Positions 4,531-40,389 of a stretch of 64,000 nucleotides of DNA are shown here, one piece after another. The number at the start of each line of letters is the position of its first letter. Position 1 is the first letter of the stretch. The DNA is taken from the IMG/VR virus record IMGVR_UViG_3300042885_001472; one strand, written 5' to 3'. The notes beneath the pieces are model-generated. The model saw nothing but the letters and a program-made list of their open reading frames with translations. It was not told the origin of the DNA and ran no database searches. The DNA comes from a virus (lineage: Duplodnaviria; Caudoviricetes). The position numbers and the translations under genes are program-made.

Positions 4531-5931
4531 ATGACAAATAAAAGTACAGACAGTTTAGGTTATTTAGGTCACACATTTCAATTAAAATTATTAAATCAGA
4601 TATTATTAGATGATAAGTTTTCATCAACGATAATCGATGTTTTAGATCCAACTTATTTTGATAATGAATACCTTAGATTAATTTCTAGTAAAATTAAAGA
4701 TTACCACGAAAAGTATGAAACAATACCAGAGGTTAACACTTTAGAACAAATGTTAATCGTTGAGATTAAAAGAGAAGTTACCAGACAACATACTTTAGAC
4801 TTATTAAATGAGGTTAAAGATATATCTCAAAAAGATAGTATTTATACCCAAGAAACTGGGTTGATGTTTTGTAAACAACAGGAGTTAAAAAAAGCTACTA
4901 AGAAAATTCAAAAAATTCTTGATATGGGTGATTTTGATCGATACCAAGAATGTGAAGAAATACTTAAACAAGCTTTAACTGTTGGTAATTTAAAAGATAA
5001 TGGGGTTGATATTTTTAGTGGTATTGATGATGTATTATCTGATGACTTCAGAAATCCAATCCCAACCGGTATTCATGGGTTAGACAATCTAATGGATGGT
5101 GGTTTATCTAAAGGTGAGTTAGGTGTTATATTAGCCCCATTTGGTGTTGGTAAAACAACTATGGTAACTAAGTTAGCTAATACAGCGTATAACTTAGGAT
5201 TTAATGTAGTCCAAATATTCTTTGAGGATAATCCTAAAGTAATACAGAGAAAACATTTTACGTGTTGGACTGGTGTTGAGTTAAATAAATTAAATGAAGA
5301 AAGAGAACGAGTTAAGTTTGAGGTTGAGAGTATTAAAGAAAATTCAACCGGAAACCTAATTTTAAAGAAATTCCCAAGTGATGGTACGACAATACCACAC
5401 ATCAAACAATACCTTAGAAAATTAACATCTGATGGGATTAGACCAGATATCGTATTACTTGATTATATTGATTGTGTACAACCATCTAAACGAGTTGATG
5501 ATGTAAACGTTGGTGAAGGTAATGTGATGAGAGAATTTGAATCTATGATTGATGAGTTAAGTCTTGTTGGTTGGACTGCGATACAAGGTAATAGAGGTTC
5601 AATTGGTGCTCAAGTAGTTGAAGCTAATATGATTGGTGGTTCTATTAAGAAAGGTCAGATTGGTCACTTTATAGTTTCTATAGCTAAAACATTAGATCAA
5701 AAAGAAGAGGGTAGAGCTACTATGGCGATTCTTAAATCTAGATTTGGTAAAGATGGTGTTATATTTGAAGATATTGTTTTTGATAATGGAACAATTTGTA
5801 TTGATACTACATCTTCAAGTGATGTTTCTTTCTTAAGTTTTGAGAAGGGGTTAGATAAAAAGAAATCAAATAGAATACAAGATGCTCTTAAACTAAGAGA
5901 AGAGTTTTTAAATAAAAATAAAAGTAATTAA
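4531..5931 (+). CDS. dnaB: Replicative DNA helicase (DnaB/T4 gp41 family)
   Basis: Walker [10 protein letters not shown], Walker [24 protein letters not shown]. Confidence 0.9.
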
Positions 5932-5932
5932 T

Positions 5933-6883
5933 ATGGAACCAATACTAGTAACAAATCCTGATAGGTTTGTATTATTCCCAATTGAACATCAAGATTTGTG
6001 GGAATACTACAATATTGAAAAAGCTGCGATGTGGACAGCTGAAGAATTAGATTTATCAAAAGATATTGATCATTGGGAAAACAAATTAACTGATAATGAA
6101 AGATTTTTCATTAAAAATGTATTGGCTTTTTTCGCCGCGTCTGATGGTATTGTAAATGAAAATTTAGCTATCAATTTTTTAAATGAAGTACAATATACTG
6201 AAGCTAAGTTTTTTTATGGGTTTCAAATTATGATGGAGAATATACATAGTCATGTGTATTCTTTATTGATTGACACTTATATAAAGGATATTAAAGAAAG
6301 ACATAAATGTTTTAAGGCTATTGAGTACATGCCACCGGTTAAGAAGAAGGCTGATTGGGCTTTGAAATGGATTGAATCAGAATCATTTGTTGAAAGACTA
6401 TTAGCTTTTGTGGCGGTAGAAGGTATATTTTTTAGTGGTTCTTTTTGTAGTATATTCTATTTAAAGTCTAGAGGATTAATGCCGGGGTTATGTGATAGTA
6501 ACGCTTTCATATCAAGAGATGAAGCCTTACATTGTGATTTCGCGATACATTTATTAAACAATCATATTGTTAATAAACCATCTAAAGAAAAAATAAAGGA
6601 GATATTATTATCTGCGTTAGATATTGAAAAAGAATTTATATTAGAATCATTACCAGTATCACTTATTGGTATGAACGCTGATTTAATGAAACAATATTTG
6701 GAGTTTGTTGTTGATGGTTTACTATCAACACTCAATTGTGAAAAAGTATTTAACACAAAAAATCCATTTGAATTTATGAATCAAATTGCGTTAAAAACAA
6801 AACAAAACTTTTTTGAGGGGAGATCTACAGAATATAAAGCCGCTGATTTATCAGGACCAATATCATTTGACGAAGAAATTTAA
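5933..6883 (+). CDS. nrdB: Class Ia ribonucleotide reductase small subunit
   Basis: [63 protein letters not shown]. Confidence 0.95.
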
Positions 6884-6903: not shown

Positions 6904-8469
6904 ATGCGAGTAATAAAAAGAAATGGGTCTAAGATTGATTTCAACCCAAATAAAATTTTAACTAGAATAAAAAAACAAGCGGAAGGGTTAAAAATAAATG
7001 CTGATGAAGTATTTCTTAAAGTTACTCAAGGTATTGCTGATAATATGACAACCGATGAAGTTGATGATTTAATTTCAGTTGTGTCAGAATCATTAGCTAT
7101 GAATCATCCAGACTATTCTAAGTTGGCCGCTAACATATCAATTAGTAAATTACATAAAGAAACTGAAGATTCTTTTATGAAGGCTACTAAAAGATTATAT
7201 AACGCTGGTTTATTAAATGATTTCTATTATAATAAAGTAAAAGAAAATATTGATCTGATTGAATCAGTAATTGATTATAAAAGAGATTATAGATTTGATT
7301 ATTTTGGATGGTGTTCACTTAAAGATATCTACTTATTAAAAATTGGTGATGAAATAACAGAAAGACCACAACACCTATACATTAGAGTAGCTTTAATGGT
7401 GACTAATAACCCTACTGATTTTAAAGAAAAGTATGAAGATTTAAGTTTACAAAGGGAATCTCCAGCTACGCCTATAAAAATTAATATTGGTACTAATATA
7501 GGACAAATTGCGTCATGTAATTTATCTATAGTTCCGGATGACTCAACTGAGGGGTTATTAAGTATGTTAAATAGAATATCAGTATCATCATCTAAAGCTG
7601 AAGGTATTGGTTTAGCTATATCTAACATTCGTTCAAAGGAAAGTAATGTTGGACAATCAAATGGTAAAGCTGGTGGTATTTTAAAATATTTAAAAGTTGT
7701 AAATGAAGCTTTAAGATTTTGGAATCAAAGAGGTAAACGACCTGGATCTTGCGCTGTTTATATTGAACCTTGGCATAAAGATGTATTTGATATTTTGGAT
7801 ATTAGAAAGAAAACTGGTGATGAAACACTTAGAGCACGAGATTTATTTTCAGCGTTATGGATACCGGATAACTTTATGAGAGCTGTTGAATCAAATGGGG
7901 ATTGGTATTTGTTTTGTCCTAATGACATTAAACAAGCTGGTTTAAAACCATTTTATGATATCTATGGTGAAGAATATGAGTTAGAATATAATAAGGCTGT
8001 TGAGATGGGTTTAGGTACTAAAATCAAAGCTCACGATTTGTGGTTAAGAATTATTGAATCACAAATTGAAAGTGGTATGCCTTATATGTGTTTTAAAGAT
8101 CATGCGAATAATAAATCAAATCAAAAGAATTTTGGTGTTATACATTCAAGTAACCTATGTTGTTTACATAGTGACACATTAATTACGATTATGTATGGTA
8201 ATGGTGAGATTAGAGAAGTAACTATGAAAAATGTTGTTGAAGAAATTAAAAAGGATAAAAATATAAAAGTTTTAAGTCAAGATAATATTTTTAGACCAAT
8301 GTTGGCTGCTGCGAAAATGAAATCAAACGCTGAAATTATAGAAGTTAGTGATGATGAGTTAGGGGTAAAAATAGTTTGTACACCAGATCACCAAATATTA
8401 ACAAAAAACAGAGGGTATGTTATGGCCGGTGAATTAAATGAAAATGATGAATTAATTATTAATAAATAA
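6904..8469 (+). CDS. nrdA: Ribonucleotide reductase large subunit, fragment 1 (ATP cone to catalytic Cys) fused to split-intein N-half
   Basis: MRVIKRNG ATP cone, QRGKRPGS, IEPWHKD, IESQIESGMPY, HSSNLC then intein block A CLHSDTLIT. Confidence 0.93.
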   Translation: MRVIKRNGSKIDFNPNKILTRIKKQAEGLKINADEVFLKVTQGIADNMTTDEVDDLISVVSESLAMNHPDYSKLAANISISKLHKETEDSFMKATKRLYNAGLLNDFYYNKVKENIDLIESVIDYKRDYRFDYFGWCSLKDIYLLKIGDEITERPQHLYIRVALMVTNNPTDFKEKYEDLSLQRESPATPIKINIGTNIGQIASCNLSIVPDDSTEGLLSMLNRISVSSSKAEGIGLAISNIRSKESNVGQSNGKAGGILKYLKVVNEALRFWNQRGKRPGSCAVYIEPWHKDVFDILDIRKKTGDETLRARDLFSALWIPDNFMRAVESNGDWYLFCPNDIKQAGLKPFYDIYGEEYELEYNKAVEMGLGTKIKAHDLWLRIIESQIESGMPYMCFKDHANNKSNQKNFGVIHSSNLCCLHSDTLITIMYGNGEIREVTMKNVVEEIKKDKNIKVLSQDNIFRPMLAAAKMKSNAEIIEVSDDELGVKIVCTPDHQILTKNRGYVMAGELNENDELIINK

Positions 8470-8569
8470 GATGATAAAAATAAAAAAATTAGAAGAAAAA
8501 ATTGATGTATATGATATACAAGTAGAAGAAACTAGTAATTTCTTTGCTAATAATATATTAGTACATAAT
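8161..8569 (+). mobile_element. Split intein 1 in NrdA: IntN 8161-8466 (102 aa), IntC 8471-8569 (33 aa)
   Basis: Block A CLHSDT, block B CTPDH, stop, TAAGATG junction, then MIKIKK...VYDIQV...VHN/S. Confidence 0.9.
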
Positions 8570-9457
8570 TCCGAAATTATGGAGGTAACTGATAAAGAAA
8601 CCACCGCCATCTGTACGCTAACGTCAATACCGGTTCAAAAATTTGTCATAGATAATGAGTATGATTTTAATGAATTAGGTCGTGTTACACGATCAATAAC
8701 AAAATCACTTAATATTGCGATAGATGTTAATGAATATTCAACTAAAGAAGGTAGAAAAGGTGGTTTAGAACAAAGAGCTTTAGGTATTGGTATCCAAGGA
8801 TTAGCTGACACTTTCGCTATGTTACGATTACCATTTGTATCTGAAGAAGCTAGATCATTAAATAAAAAAATATTTGAAACAATTTATTATAACGCTTTAA
8901 GACAATCTTGTGATTTAGCGAAAGAAACTGGATTAACTTATGATTTTTATGAAGGATCTCCAATTTCAAAAGGTATTTTCCAATGGGAAATGTGGGGTGT
9001 TGATGAATCTGAATTGAGTGGTATGTTTGATTGGAAACAATTAAGAAAAGATATTAAAAAATATGGTGTTAGAAACTCACTTGTCACGACCTGTCCGCCA
9101 ACCGCAAGTTGTCAAGTTATTGATACTAGAATACATACTGAAAATGGTGTTAAATCATTTAAAGATTTACTAGTTGAAAATGGTGTTGATTATGTTAAAT
9201 TAGAAGAATCTAATGAACAACAATGGGTTGAATTTAAAACACCTATAAAAGTAAAAACTTATAATGGGTATGAAGATGTAAGTCAAATAAAATATAATGG
9301 TCATTCTGAAGTTTATAAAATTGAAATGGAAGATGGTTCTATATTTGAAGCAACACCTAACCATAAATTTAGGATTAAAAGAGGTGATACTGAAATTTGG
9401 GTTAAAGTTGAGGATTTATTAACTACGGACGATATTATAAATATTTTTGAAAAATAA
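8471..9457 (+). CDS. nrdA: Ribonucleotide reductase large subunit, fragment 2 (IntC1 - extein - IntN2)
   Basis: After VHN: SEIMEV, CTLTSI, RALGIGIQGLAD, GVRNSLVTTCPPTAS, then a second intein block A CQVIDTRI. Confidence 0.92.
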   Translation: MIKIKKLEEKIDVYDIQVEETSNFFANNILVHNSEIMEVTDKETTAICTLTSIPVQKFVIDNEYDFNELGRVTRSITKSLNIAIDVNEYSTKEGRKGGLEQRALGIGIQGLADTFAMLRLPFVSEEARSLNKKIFETIYYNALRQSCDLAKETGLTYDFYEGSPISKGIFQWEMWGVDESELSGMFDWKQLRKDIKKYGVRNSLVTTCPPTASCQVIDTRIHTENGVKSFKDLLVENGVDYVKLEESNEQQWVEFKTPIKVKTYNGYEDVSQIKYNGHSEVYKIEMEDGSIFEATPNHKFRIKRGDTEIWVKVEDLLTTDDIINIFEK

Positions 9458-9593
9458 AATAAGTAATCTAATAAAAACAAAAAATAAAATGAAAATAAAA
9501 AGTATAATTAAAAACGGAGTTAAACCAACTTGGGATATTGAAGTACCAAATGTTCATCATTATATAATGGAAAATGGTTGTGTTAGTCATAAT
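9110..9593 (+). mobile_element. Split intein 2 in NrdA: IntN 9110-9454 (115 aa), IntC 9489-9593 (35 aa)
   Basis: CQVIDTRI...EATPNH...stop; MKIKSI...TWDIEV...SHN/S. Confidence 0.88.
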
Positions 9594-10106
9594 TCGGCCC
9601 GTGTCATAGGTTCTAATGAAGCTTTTGAACCGTTTACTTCTAATTTATATGTTCGTAAGGTAACTGGTGGTGAATTCGCTATGGTTAATAAACATTTGGT
9701 TAAAGATTTAGAATTAGAAGGGTTATGGAATAGGGACATTCTTAATGAATTGATAAAAAATGATGGTAGCGTTCAATCAATCCCAGTTATTAGTCAAGAA
9801 ATGAAGGAAAGATATAAAACTGTTTGGGAGATATCACAAAAATCTCTTATTGAAATGTCGGCCGAAAGAGCTCCATTCATTGATCAATCTCAAAGTCTTA
9901 ACATATTTTTCGCCACACCAACGGTTGGTAAATTAACTACCTCACACACATTAGCTTGGAAGTTAGGTTTAAAAACTGGTCAATACTACCTAAGAAGTCA
10001 ACCGGTAGAAATGAAAGGTAAACATTTAGCTATTGATATGGGTAAACAAATTAAACCTGAGAAACCTACTGATAGTCAATTTGAATGTTATGGTTGTAGT
10101 GCGTAA
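9489..10106 (+). CDS. nrdA: Ribonucleotide reductase large subunit, fragment 3 (IntC2 - C-terminal extein)
   Basis: SHN/SARVIGSNEAFEP, FIDQSQSLN, WKLGLKTGQYYLR, C-terminal CYGC; ATG 9489 preferred over TTG 9447. Confidence 0.92.
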   Translation: MKIKSIIKNGVKPTWDIEVPNVHHYIMENGCVSHNSARVIGSNEAFEPFTSNLYVRKVTGGEFAMVNKHLVKDLELEGLWNRDILNELIKNDGSVQSIPVISQEMKERYKTVWEISQKSLIEMSAERAPFIDQSQSLNIFFATPTVGKLTTSHTLAWKLGLKTGQYYLRSQPVEMKGKHLAIDMGKQIKPEKPTDSQFECYGCSA

Positions 10107-10137: not shown

Positions 10138-10165
10138 AAACTAGGGAAAATATCTCTAGTTTTTC
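10138..10165 (+). terminator. Intrinsic terminator after nrdA
   Basis: AAACTAGGGA-AAATA-TCTCTAGTTT plus T run. Confidence 0.65.
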
Positions 10166-10212
10166 TTTTTTTAAAAATATACAAATATTTTTTATTGTAT
10201 ATATTTATAGTA

Positions 10213-36410: not shown

Positions 36411-37013
36411 ATGGAAAAAGAAATGATTAAAAAAGACGGAGTAACTAGTACATTACCATCAAAGGCACAAGTAAAAGTTTATTGGGATGATAGACCGGAA
36501 AATAATTCAAATGAAGGTAAACAACGAATTAAAGCTTATTTCTCAAAAAAGTATGGTGTACCACCCACATCAATTAATGTTATTTTTAGGGCGGTTAAAG
36601 AAGGTAATAAACCAGAGTTAATAAGATTGTCTGATGGTGTGGTTGATAATATTATGGATACTACATATCAAAAAAACTTATTTAAAGAATGGTTAGATAG
36701 AGAAAAAATTGAAACTAATTGGGATCGTATCGTTAAGTTGGATGATAAAGTTAATGAGGAATATAAACTAATTAAAGATACTGATTATAGATATCGTAAA
36801 TGGTTTATTAAAACTATTGAGATTGATAACTTATTAAGTTTTGGTGATGATAATGTAATTAACTATTCTGACCTTAACGGTGTTAGTGTGGTTGTGTCGG
36901 ACCCACCAAACCAGGGGGGTAAATGCGTTAGGGCTGATACTCAAGTACTTATAGATTATAATGAGGAATATATCATTAAAAAATTAGGTTTTTTGCCAGA
37001 TGAGTTAAAATAA
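36411..37013 (+). CDS. sbcC: SbcC/Rad50/T4 gp46 ATPase, N-terminal fragment plus 29-aa split-intein N-half
   Basis: WFIKTIEIDNLLSFG, Walker A first half PPNQGGK, then CVRADTQVLI (intein block A) and a stop. Confidence 0.88.
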   Translation: MEKEMIKKDGVTSTLPSKAQVKVYWDDRPENNSNEGKQRIKAYFSKKYGVPPTSINVIFRAVKEGNKPELIRLSDGVVDNIMDTTYQKNLFKEWLDREKIETNWDRIVKLDDKVNEEYKLIKDTDYRYRKWFIKTIEIDNLLSFGDDNVINYSDLNGVSVVVSDPPNQGGKCVRADTQVLIDYNEEYIIKKLGFLPDELK

Positions 37014-38523
37014 ATATATTACTTTATTTACCTTTTTGGTTAGTCGGTTATATTTATATAAAAATGTAACTAAAATGGGTAATAAAAAACAATTCACGGA
37101 ATTAGAAATTAAAGATATGATTAAAATGTATACTGAAGATTTTGAATCAACAAAAAATATTGGTTTAAAATATGGTGTTGATCGAGAAGTAATAATTAAT
37201 AGGTTAAAAATGAATAATGTTAAAATACCGAAAAGTTCACCATATAGTGAAAAGTATTGGTTAGATAGGGGCTTACCAGAGGATAAAATATTAGAACATA
37301 TTAAGACATTAAGACCGGTAAATAAAGAACATTGGATTAAAAAGGGGTACTCAGAGTCCGAAGCTATTCTACAAATAGAAGGTCAGAAATTGGTCTCTCT
37401 AAGAGGGTGTATCGCTAGATTTGGTGAAATTGAGGGTAAACAAATATGGGATAGTAGAATGGAAAAAAGGAGTGAAAATGGTAAATTAGGTTCAGCTAAT
37501 TTAGAATATTGGTTAAATAAAGGTTATTCTAATGAGGAAGCGGTGAAATTAAGGTCAGAAAGACAAAATACATTTTCTTTAGAGAAATGTTTAAAGAAAC
37601 ATGGTGAAGAAAATGGACGAAAAATATTTGTGCAGAGACAAAATAATTGGCAAAAAAGTTTATATAAAAATGGTAAATTAAAATCAGGTTATTCAGAAGT
37701 AAGTCAAGAATTATTTTTAAAATTAATTGAAAATATTGAGGTTAATGAATTAAATTATTTTTTATTCGCAAAAAAGGGTGGGGAGTTTGTGTTAAATAAT
37801 TCTAATGGGTTTTATAGGTATGACTTTACCGATTTAAAAAATAAGAAAATTATTGAATATAATGGTGATGTCTATCATGCTAACCCAGAGATTTATAATG
37901 AAACTGATACTCCAAACCCATTTAGGAAGTATTTGTCAGCCCAAGAAATTTGGGAAAAAGATGGGAATAAAAAAAATATAGCTAATGAACATGGGTTTGA
38001 GTTATTAGTCGTTTGGGATTCTGAATATAAAAAAAATAAAGAAAGTGTTATTAATAAGTGTAAAAATTTTTTAAATTTAACTGGTTAAAAGTTAATGGAT
38101 ATTAATAAAGTTTGTATAAATAAAAATAGTTTTTAAAATAAAAAAAATAAAATGGAGAAAAGTTTAACAATAGGTGAATTAAATGAAATTTATAAAAAAT
38201 ATGGTGATTTAAGTTTTAAAGTTAGTACACCTTATGGATTCAAAGATATTGAATGGTGTGGTATTACGGAAGAAAATGCTGATGTTTATCGATGTGAATT
38301 AGAAGATGGTAAATACGTGGAAGGGGCTGATTATCATAAATTGAAAAAAGAAGATGGTGAATTTGTTGTCCTTAAAGAAATTGAAGTTGATACACCAATA
38401 CAGACGATTGATGGTATTAAGAAAGTTAAAAGTATTAAATTAATGGATTTTAAAGATACTTTATATGACATACAAGTAGCGGAAGTACATCAATACTATA
38501 CAAATGGTATTGTTTCCCATAAT
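36924..38523 (+). mobile_element. Atypically split intein (IntN 36924-37010, IntC 38152-38523) enclosing a free-standing endonuclease gene
   Basis: IntN CVRADTQVLIDYNEEYIIKKLGFLPDELK; IntC MEKSLTIGEL...GADYH...LYDIQV...SHN/T. Confidence 0.88.
37075..38088 (+). CDS. Free-standing Vsr-like (PD-(D/E)XK) homing endonuclease
   Basis: C-terminal YRYDFTDLKNKKIIEYNGDVYHANP...WEKD..K...A.EHGFELLVVWDSEY; repeated YW..KGYS..EA modules; sits between intein halves; ATATTTAT motif upstream. Confidence 0.8.
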   Translation: MGNKKQFTELEIKDMIKMYTEDFESTKNIGLKYGVDREVIINRLKMNNVKIPKSSPYSEKYWLDRGLPEDKILEHIKTLRPVNKEHWIKKGYSESEAILQIEGQKLVSLRGCIARFGEIEGKQIWDSRMEKRSENGKLGSANLEYWLNKGYSNEEAVKLRSERQNTFSLEKCLKKHGEENGRKIFVQRQNNWQKSLYKNGKLKSGYSEVSQELFLKLIENIEVNELNYFLFAKKGGEFVLNNSNGFYRYDFTDLKNKKIIEYNGDVYHANPEIYNETDTPNPFRKYLSAQEIWEKDGNKKNIANEHGFELLVVWDSEYKKNKESVINKCKNFLNLTG

Positions 38524-40389
38524 ACCACTTTTTCAGTTGACGCCCTTAAATTTTTATTTTTTGGTGAAACTACTAAGACAGAAAAAAATGAAGATATTTT
38601 CAATAGTTTTAGAGAAAGTAATATTGTTAGAGTTAAAGGTTTAATTGAGATTGATGGTGATGATTTTATGATTGAAAGAGTTATCAATAGAAAACCCAAA
38701 AAAGCTGGTGGGTGGAGTGTATCATCATCTGTTGAATATAAAAAAATATTACCAGATGGTACAGAGGAAGATTTAAAAGGTGAACAAACACAAGACACCA
38801 CTAAAAAAATCGCTGAAGCCATAGGTAGTGAAAGTGATTTTATGGCCACGATTATAGCTACCGGTGATAACCTTACAGATTTAATTGATTCTAAACCAAC
38901 AGAGAGGGGTAAAACACTAACCAAATTTATTGGACTTGAAGTGTTAGATGATAAAGAAGAGATCGCCAAGAAAATGACATCAGAGTTTAAAAAAACTATG
39001 AAGTCTAACATTTATAATATTGAAACGTTAAAGAATGAAATCATTAACAATGGTCTTACGATTGAAAACTTAGGTGTATCAAATTATGATACTAATAAAA
39101 GTTTGGAAGAATCCATTAAAACGATTGAAGAATTGAACTACGAGAGAGATGGGTTACTATCTAAAAAAGTTCAAATAGATCCTGAGATTTTAAAATTAAA
39201 CCCTGAGACATTAAAAACTGATATTGGTTTATTAACTAAAAATGGTGTTAATAAAAAAGCGGAATTAGATACTATTATTAAAGAATTAGAAACTTTAGGT
39301 AAATCAACATATGATGAAGATGGACATAAAAAAACTAAAGATAGTAGGAATGAAGTAGAACTTTCTAGGAGGGGTAATATTAGTGAGATTAATAAATTAA
39401 GTAGTCACATTAAAGCTCTTAAAGAAGGTGAATTTTGTCCAACTTGTAAAAGATCATTAGAAGATGTTGACCATAGTAAAGAAATTAGTGATAGTGAAAA
39501 TAAATCTATTGAATTAACTAAAATTAATGAGGGGTTAGTAATTGAATTAGGTGAACTAGATCTATTGATTAGTCGATATGATGTTCAAAAATCCGAATCA
39601 GATTCTATTGATAGAAAATCTTTAATGAAAGATAAGATTGAAGTTGATTTAGAACGAATGAGAGTAACCCTTAAAGAGAAGAATAATCAACTTAAGGAGT
39701 ATGAGAGAAACACTGAATTTATTGATTCCAATCAAAAATTAGAAAGTCAGTTAACCGGAGTTAATTCAAGGATTAGAATGGTCGATATTGATAAGAATAA
39801 TTTTATGAAACTAATTGAAAAAAATAATAATGAAATCATTAGATTAGAAGAGTCAACAATTGATAAAACCAAATTAATAGAAACCATTAGGAAAGAATTA
39901 GATGTTGAAAAAATATTTGACATCTATTGTAAAATGATTGGTAAAAATGGAATTGGTAAGTTAGTTTTAAGATCTGTAATACCAATTATTAATTCAGAGA
40001 TTCAACAAATGTTAGATGGGGCTTGTGATTTTGAATTGGAATTAAATGTTAATGATAAGAATGAGGTTGAATTCCTGATCATAAAAAACTTTATACCTAA
40101 ATTGGTTAAGTCTGGGTCTGGGTTTGAGAAAACATTAGCGGCTTTAGCTCTTAGATTAGTATTAGGTAAAGTTTCTACACTACCTAAACCAAATATCATA
40201 GTATTGGATGAGGTATTGGGTAAAGTGGCTGATGAGAATTTATCTTTAATGAGACCATTTTTTGAAAAAATTAAAAGTAGTTTTGATAGTATCTTATTGA
40301 TAACACATAGAGAATTGGTGAGAGATTGGGCTGACAACATTTTAATGATTAAAAAAGAAAATGATGTTTCATCTATAGTTTCAATTTAA
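38152..40389 (+). CDS. sbcC: Split-intein C-half plus SbcC/Rad50/gp46 C-terminal fragment
   Basis: After SHN: TTFSVDALKFLFFG, coiled coils, zinc hook CPTC, signature SGSGFEK, Walker B IVLDE, LITH. Confidence 0.92.
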   Translation: MEKSLTIGELNEIYKKYGDLSFKVSTPYGFKDIEWCGITEENADVYRCELEDGKYVEGADYHKLKKEDGEFVVLKEIEVDTPIQTIDGIKKVKSIKLMDFKDTLYDIQVAEVHQYYTNGIVSHNTTFSVDALKFLFFGETTKTEKNEDIFNSFRESNIVRVKGLIEIDGDDFMIERVINRKPKKAGGWSVSSSVEYKKILPDGTEEDLKGEQTQDTTKKIAEAIGSESDFMATIIATGDNLTDLIDSKPTERGKTLTKFIGLEVLDDKEEIAKKMTSEFKKTMKSNIYNIETLKNEIINNGLTIENLGVSNYDTNKSLEESIKTIEELNYERDGLLSKKVQIDPEILKLNPETLKTDIGLLTKNGVNKKAELDTIIKELETLGKSTYDEDGHKKTKDSRNEVELSRRGNISEINKLSSHIKALKEGEFCPTCKRSLEDVDHSKEISDSENKSIELTKINEGLVIELGELDLLISRYDVQKSESDSIDRKSLMKDKIEVDLERMRVTLKEKNNQLKEYERNTEFIDSNQKLESQLTGVNSRIRMVDIDKNNFMKLIEKNNNEIIRLEESTIDKTKLIETIRKELDVEKIFDIYCKMIGKNGIGKLVLRSVIPIINSEIQQMLDGACDFELELNVNDKNEVEFLIIKNFIPKLVKSGSGFEKTLAALALRLVLGKVSTLPKPNIIVLDEVLGKVADENLSLMRPFFEKIKSSFDSILLITHRELVRDWADNILMIKKENDVSSIVSI

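Follow-up and report, generated by a model that had tools for sequence, protein, structure and literature searches.

Split inteins in phage ribonucleotide reductase (RNR) genes have been known since 2009, when the fractured genes NrdA-1 to NrdA-7, NrdJ-1 and NrdJ-2, and gp41-1 to gp41-8 were described from ocean metagenomes (Dassa et al. 2009; PMC2677866). NrdJ-1 is a fast natural split intein (PMC2677866, PMC7090010) that is widely used for ligation, and engineered tandem trans-splicing joins three protein segments (PMC12707363, PMC7090010). We present here an RNR gene, nrdA, that lies in three pieces in a 64,000-nucleotide (nt) stretch of viral DNA (Duplodnaviria; Caudoviricetes; IMG/VR record IMGVR_UViG_3300042885_001472). 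This whole stretch is called the window, and positions refer to it unless another sequence is named. It is highly probable that this nrdA, of a T4-like freshwater phage, is split by two unrelated class 1 mini-inteins and that its products are trans-spliced to one NrdA, the associated endonuclease genes having been lost. The parts of this natural two-intein, three-piece gene are of the known fractured-gene and split-intein kind, and the layout is widespread, not unique. No literature description of a natural protein needing two split inteins was found, which, with incomplete coverage, is absence of evidence only.

As in the loci of Dassa et al., a phage DNA-metabolism gene is broken by a split intein, with the RNR insertion at the thiyl-radical Cys; the N-terminal intein half (IntN) ends in a stop codon, the C-terminal half (IntC) has its own Met, and in close relatives of the window the two halves are separated by a free-standing endonuclease gene of GIY-YIG or Vsr-like type. 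Unlike those loci, which were described with one split intein each, the window nrdA has two, falls into three pieces and has lost both endonuclease genes; a split intein that lacks its endonuclease gene has a precedent in the gp41-7 locus. In the strict definition of a fractured gene, an endonuclease gene stands between the halves; some relatives have one and the window has none, so the window is a derivative of such a gene. NrdJ-1 (PDB 8UBS, 9OMB) shares its split point with the first window intein, which follows the radical Cys and has a Ser at position +1. Unlike NrdJ-1, the window intein is hosted by a class Ia NrdA rather than a class II NrdJ, is only partially identical and has a gap without an endonuclease gene. 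Engineered tandem systems likewise use three segments, the middle one carrying the IntC of one intein and the IntN of the other, with no cross-reaction allowed, but they are man-made combinations of inteins from different sources, whereas the window pair is natural and lies in one gene. Unlike the intein-less split NrdA of Aeromonas phage Aeh1, which has short tails (PMC3045599), both window breaks are flanked by complete intein halves.

The window nrdA consists of three same-strand open reading frames (ORFs) downstream of nrdB: ORF1 (6904-8469, 521 amino acids [aa]), ORF2 (8471-9457, 328 aa) and ORF3 (from the ATG at 9489 to 10106). The parts follow in the order extein-IntN1, IntC1-extein-IntN2 and IntC2-extein, as listed here.

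6904..8160, + strand: N-extein, 419 aa, with the ATP-cone, the all-alpha region and the first 213 barrel profile positions; ends SNLC, with the thiyl-radical Cys
8161..8469, + strand: IntN1, 102 aa, CLHSDT...TPDH...ELIINK and a TAA stop; Pfam positions 4-94
8470..8470, + strand: single-base spacer, G, from the IntN1 stop to the IntC1 ATG
8471..8569, + strand: IntC1, 33 aa, MIKIKK...NILVHN, then the +1 Ser; Pfam Intein_splicing positions 124-155
8570..9109, + strand: middle extein, 180 aa, SEIM...CPPTAS, with the catalytic Glu and the next conserved Cys
9110..9457, + strand: IntN2, 115 aa, CQVIDT...TPNH...NIFEK and a TAA stop; weak phmmer matches to DnaE inteins
9458..9488, + strand: spacer, 31 nt, A/T-rich, with two more stops in the ORF2 frame
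9489..9593, + strand: IntC2, 35 aa, MKIKS...GCVSHN, then the +1 Ser
9594..10106, + strand: C-extein, 170 aa, SARV..., with the YY radical-transfer pair, the C-terminal CxxC and the stop

An earlier note on this DNA had proposed this order of parts, and the coordinates and Pfam agree with it: Intein_splicing was found on ORF1 and ORF2, and the RNR barrel profile runs over positions 1-213 on ORF1, 213-396 on ORF2 and 393-523 on ORF3. Its count of 769 aa (419+180+170) for the exteins after intein removal is exact, and both junction motifs of this class Ia NrdA, SNLC-SEI and PTAS-SARV (hyphens mark splice sites), are intact. That each IntC starts at its own Met (MIKIKK and MKIKS) agrees with the relatives, in which the MIKI start of IntC1 is mostly conserved and MKIK is without exception the start of ORF3; in the window, a TTG at 9447 is an in-frame upstream alternative to the latter. 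Neither intein gap of the window (1 nt and 31 nt) contains an endonuclease ORF, as the note had also held.

The features of a class Ia NrdA are complete, comprising the ATP-cone, all-alpha and barrel regions, the catalytic Cys, Asn, Cys, Glu and Cys, the YY pair, the C-terminal Cys pair and an adjacent nrdB. The catalytic motifs of the spliced sequence are ASCNL, SNLCSEI, AICTL, GQYYL and CYGCSA. The first piece holds the first catalytic Cys and the radical Cys, the second the Glu and the next Cys, and the third the YY and the C-terminal Cys pair, so all three pieces must be joined or at least assembled. The computed masses are 59.2, 37.8 and 23.2 kDa for the precursors and 87.3 kDa for the spliced NrdA, and the predicted spliced-junction peptides are NFGVIHSSNLCSEIMEVTDK and NSLVTTCPPTASSAR.

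Position 1 of a class 1 intein is Cys in both IntN1 (CLHSDT) and IntN2 (CQVIDT). Both have a block B TxxH (TPDH in IntN1, where the NrdJ-1 alignment spans the block, and TPNH in IntN2), and both end in His-Asn before the nucleophile (VHN-S in intein 1, SHN-S in intein 2); relatives keep these ends as VHN followed by S or C and SHN followed by S or T. Intein 1 stands one residue after the thiyl-radical Cys with a +1 Ser, the "NrdJ site" of Dassa et al. 2009, although its host gene is a class Ia nrdA. With phmmer, IntN1 matched residues 16-106 of the fused NrdJ-1 structure 8UBS (E 6.5e-17) and IntC1 matched residues 118-147 (E 7.6e-4), and the break coincides with that of NrdJ-1; on the Intein_splicing profile of Pfam the split falls at positions 94/124. 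By these alignments, intein 1 is of the NrdJ-1 type and homologous to NrdJ-1. Taken together, IntN2 and IntC2 are collinear, with no segment missing, with two contiguous inteins: the 146-aa mini-intein that occupies this site in Campylobacter phage IBB_35, and one in the metagenomic protein P0033. The 8UBS alignment and the mini-intein collinearity agree with the earlier placement of both breaks at the canonical split site, the endonuclease-insertion loop, and no residues are missing at either. Inteins 1 and 2 are 29% identical in IntN and 34% in IntC. The relatives' IntN2 and IntC2 are 68-77% and 86-94% identical to those of the window, respectively. The exteins have ratios of nonsynonymous to synonymous substitution (dN/dS) of 0.02-0.11, compared with 0.06-0.28 in the intein halves, and on these values both inteins are under purifying selection.

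Uninterrupted nrdA was found in 47 of 80 related viral contigs, at extein identities of 74-90%, and in those 47 each extein joins the next exactly at a predicted splice site. The uninterrupted NrdA of contig L010 aligns end-to-end with human RRM1 (3HNC; E 8e-211) and reads SNLC(S/T)EI and PTAS(S/T)A at the two insertion sites. The relative L092 (92-96% nt identity) has the identical IntN1 TAA and IntC1 ATG, with an insert of ~1.2 kb between them that holds a 396-aa GIY-YIG/NUMOD endonuclease gene, where the window keeps a single G. Since this insert separates IntN1 from IntC1, intein 1 must work in trans in L092. Intein 2 is missing from L092, with exactly 484 bp absent. One contig of metagenome run X10 skips 9109-9592, the 484 bp of intein 2 (345+3+31+105), within a 2-nt ambiguity of the joint, and thus represents an intein-free allele in the same lake.

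ORFs of 353-501 aa lie between IntN2 and IntC2 in L002-L004, L009, L084, L088 and L090, and no Pfam family was found for them. L002-L004 and L009 have intein 2 only, and the 353-aa ORF in its gap is related to an ORF in the SbcC intein of the window (see below). Free-standing ORFs occupy both gaps in L090 (~83% extein identity), L084 and L088, and the nrdA of L086 is in even more pieces. An endonuclease gene between split-intein halves is present in L092, L090, L002, L005, L084 and L088. The endonuclease-free three-piece layout occurs again in L006-L008, a lineage ~75% identical, from which L005 differs by an endonuclease gene in intein 1. The first intein of L005-L008 is a different one, inserted one residue further upstream (SNL-C...VHN-CAEI, the "NrdA site"), and its IntN is only 38% identical to IntN1. 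Between lineages, the spacers measure 1 versus 19 nt at junction 1 and 31 versus ~53 nt at junction 2. Synonymous divergence from L092 is 0.00-0.05 in the intein halves and 0.20-0.36 in the flanking exteins, and from L090 it is 0.7-0.96 and 1.3-1.8, respectively; these low intein values suggest that the inteins recently moved horizontally or underwent gene conversion, and they agree with what is expected of elements that pass between genomes. Near-identical strains differ in the presence of an intein and an endonuclease gene, which is the behavior of selfish mobile elements.

Several other features were seen in these relatives. In L006 (66-1394), and also in L007 and L008, the gp41-type helicase gene upstream of nrdB is broken by a split intein (...QGNR-CVRIDT... 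and a stop; MIEHN...THN-SS), unlike the window gp41 (4531-5931), which is uninterrupted. L016 (2143-2999) and L017 (same coordinates) have an insert of ~850 bp around residue 205 of the first extein, not far from the first catalytic Cys; in these otherwise uninterrupted nrdA genes the insert may be a third intein or intron site. An IS605 OrfB/TnpB-type gene lies directly downstream of the doubly fractured nrdA of L084 (6849-7981), on a 163-kb viral contig. Contig joints from 8100 to 8660, 8457 to 9434 and 8808 to 9028 were rejected as coming from other organisms or from A/T-rich similarity.

In the mechanism that we propose, nrdA would have been invaded at two conserved active-site loops, after the thiyl-radical Cys (SNLC-SEI) and inside PTAS-S. 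The ancestors would have been fractured-gene alleles in which each intein had its halves kept apart by a free-standing homing endonuclease gene. Both of these genes would then have been lost while the stop and start codons that they imposed stayed, and the window would represent a doubly fractured gene in its final, endonuclease-free state. The three ORFs would be co-transcribed with nrdB and translated separately, and the start of ORF2 1 nt past the ORF1 stop suggests translational coupling. A complete HINT fold would form from IntN1 and IntC1 and another from IntN2 and IntC2, and two independent trans-splicing reactions (Cys1, TxxH, His-Asn and +1 Ser) would join the 59-, 38- and 23-kDa precursors into the 87-kDa NrdA. 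We infer splicing, co-transcription, translational coupling and orthogonality of the two inteins from the nucleotide sequence.

This layout is not rare: it is widespread in metagenomes of phages and also occurs in cultured ones. Of the best 120 protein clusters matched by ORF2, 47 consist of a middle piece of the form IntC-extein-IntN, their extein identities reaching down to ~35-45%, and 55 have the order IntC1-extein-extein. Most of the IntC1-bearing clusters listed start with MIKI, and nearly all with MIKI or MLKI. A nucleotide search of GenBank phages gave distant extein matches only (identity ≤70%). In Klebsiella jumbo phage KP13-7 (L083; Alcyoneusvirus; OP617745.1, 30907-37905), nrdA is in at least four pieces, in the order extein-IntN1, a GIY-YIG-like ORF, IntC1-extein-IntN2, a 323-aa ORF and IntC2-extein, with, in addition, one intein-less nrdA break followed by an HNH-like ORF. 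Its IntC2 piece uses the same start as the window IntC2, and its middle pieces are annotated as hypothetical proteins only. Campylobacter phage IBB_35 (L081) has three inteins: one is a mini-intein, one sits at the radical Cys and is split, with two ORFs separating its halves, and one is contiguous (PPAGN-C...SHN-S). In Campylobacter phage CPt10 (L082; NC_027996.1, 117359-124330), an 88%-identical relative of IBB_35, nrdA is flagged as disrupted, a pseudogene, in RefSeq. IBB_35 and CPt10 (Firehammervirus) and KP13-7 have inteins at the same two nrdA sites as the window. Unlike the window, IBB_35 has a contiguous, cis-splicing intein at site 2 and a third, mini-intein; KP13-7 differs in the ORFs in both gaps and the extra intein-less break. 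The nrdA genes of these cultured phages of Campylobacter and Klebsiella, annotated as pseudogene or hypothetical, are likely to be fragmented but functional.

Two other fates of the window gene were considered. The intein halves might only dock and hold the NrdA pieces in a non-covalent assembly, as in Aeh1, where NrdA-a and NrdA-b are active by means of tails that arose with the mobE insertion (PMC3045599); the intein-less break in KP13-7 is a further parallel. We consider this very unlikely. Both inteins retain every residue that splicing needs, as do those of the relatives, and their dN/dS is far under 1. The first break also separates the radical Cys from the catalytic Glu, which follows it by two residues, and the 135-aa intein complex at this point would probably obstruct the active site. 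Alternatively, nrdA could be a decaying pseudogene full of selfish elements, as proposed for CPt10 and IBB_35, whose interrupted nrdA was read as degenerating (Dwivedi et al. 2013; PMC3653736) in line with the RefSeq flag of CPt10. With all three extein frames intact, the catalytic motifs present, the low extein dN/dS given above, an intact adjacent nrdB and a layout that persists in lake metagenomes throughout 2016-2024, decay is very unlikely here.

One long cis-splicing precursor could arise if ribosomes slipped or underwent programmed +1 frameshifting at both junctions, a case the earlier note had raised against its own reading. The ORF3 frame is open from 9447, which gives an 11-nt overlap with the end of ORF2, and ORF1 and ORF2 are 1 nt apart. 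Such frameshifting is extremely unlikely and is not needed. No slippery motif is present (AAA-TAA-G and GAA-AAA-TAA allow no +1 re-pairing), spacer length and sequence vary among lineages, and both IntC ORFs have start contexts normal for this genome, with A/T-rich leaders like those of all other window genes. In close relatives whole genes stand in the gaps, as with the 1.2-kb gene between the same stop and start in L092, and there trans-splicing is the only way to join the pieces. The same note had also allowed for single-base sequencing or assembly errors that break one cis-splicing gene at 8461-8473 and 9446-9491, and although both junctions are A/T- and homopolymer-rich and each shifts the frame by +1, the chance of this is practically negligible, given that contigs from two runs not flagged as the source of the window span 8000-8774 and 9050-9551 (X10, 2020) and 8000-8765 and 9108-9830 (X11, 2024) with 0 differences and 0 gaps, that L092 repeats the same stop and start, and that dozens of diverged clusters have the same MIKI Met start and the same NIFE(K) end position.

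Three points weigh against the putative trans-splicing of the three pieces, which we nevertheless prefer. The RNA support comes from a single metatranscriptome contig of 215 nt that belongs to a close relative and crosses the IntC1/extein boundary; besides this piece, the RNA run X24 gave only short contigs with mismatches, too little to establish expression. Pfam alone missed IntC2. IntN1 and IntC1 carry overall net charges of -4 and -2, which do not complement each other as the textbook electrostatic picture has it; local complementarity may hold.

Orthogonality of the two nrdA inteins is a logical requirement, because IntC1 with IntN2 would cyclize the middle piece and IntN1 with IntC2 would skip it; it is also plausible from their low mutual similarity. 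Unrelated split inteins rarely cross-react (PMC7090010). In published data, 15 of 24 functional split inteins were mutually orthogonal, and cross-talk occurred mostly with atypically split inteins. The window also contains an SbcC/gp46-like gene (36411-40389) that is fractured by an atypically split intein.

36411-37013: SbcC N-piece, ending ...PNQGGK-C with a 29-aa IntN, after the Walker A GK
37036-38088: free-standing 350-aa ORF in the gap, with a weakly restriction-endonuclease-like C-terminus
38152-40389: SbcC C-piece, with a 124-aa VidaL-like IntC (6VGV; E 5.4e-7) ending SHN-TT

This intein had been put forward as a third split intein beside the nrdA pair. It is split, but it is not of the same type, since it is split atypically and keeps an endonuclease-like gene in its gap. 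It is possible, though doubtful, that the nrdA pair and the SbcC intein form a co-evolved, mutually orthogonal set, that the nrdA pair is a stable, selected ligation system and not a transient remnant, and that it might tie RNR activity to balanced co-expression. The earlier suggestion that splicing gates deoxynucleotide (dNTP) synthesis found no support: most close relatives are uninterrupted, and near-identical strains differ in intein and endonuclease presence.

The window has a G+C content of 29% and contains T4-like replication and baseplate genes (gp32, UvsX, gp41, gp25 and gp6). The stretch was found in 24 lake or freshwater metagenome runs sampled in 2016-2024. The elements that flank the three-piece nrdA are as follows.

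5933..6883, + strand: nrdB, RNR small subunit, intact; Pfam Ribonuc_red_sm, E 1.3e-102
10138..10172, + strand: terminator-like hairpin and T-run, 3' of ORF3; none inside the three-piece nrdA

nrdB, directly upstream, is probably in the same operon as nrdA. A sigma-70 promoter scan of the window gave 25 matches, compared with 33 in shuffled sequence, and is thus uninformative on internal promoters. No Shine-Dalgarno motif was found at any of the 56 gene starts in the window (e.g., 887, 4531, 8471 and 9489), and the leaders are A/T-rich. The nearest RNR matches are from Tenacibaculum and Cellulophaga phages, which, together with the absence of Shine-Dalgarno motifs, hints at a Bacteroidota host.

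A natural gene dependent on two split inteins working side by side offers a candidate pair for tandem ligation, matched to C-S and S-S junctions. Engineered three-segment trans-splicing depends on efficient pairs that do not cross-react, and one of the window inteins is related to the very fast NrdJ-1. If the inteins do form an orthogonal, selected set, the nrdA pair would be directly reusable for one-pot assembly of three protein segments. For the phages themselves, the population series provides an unusually complete picture of the origin and persistence of split inteins.

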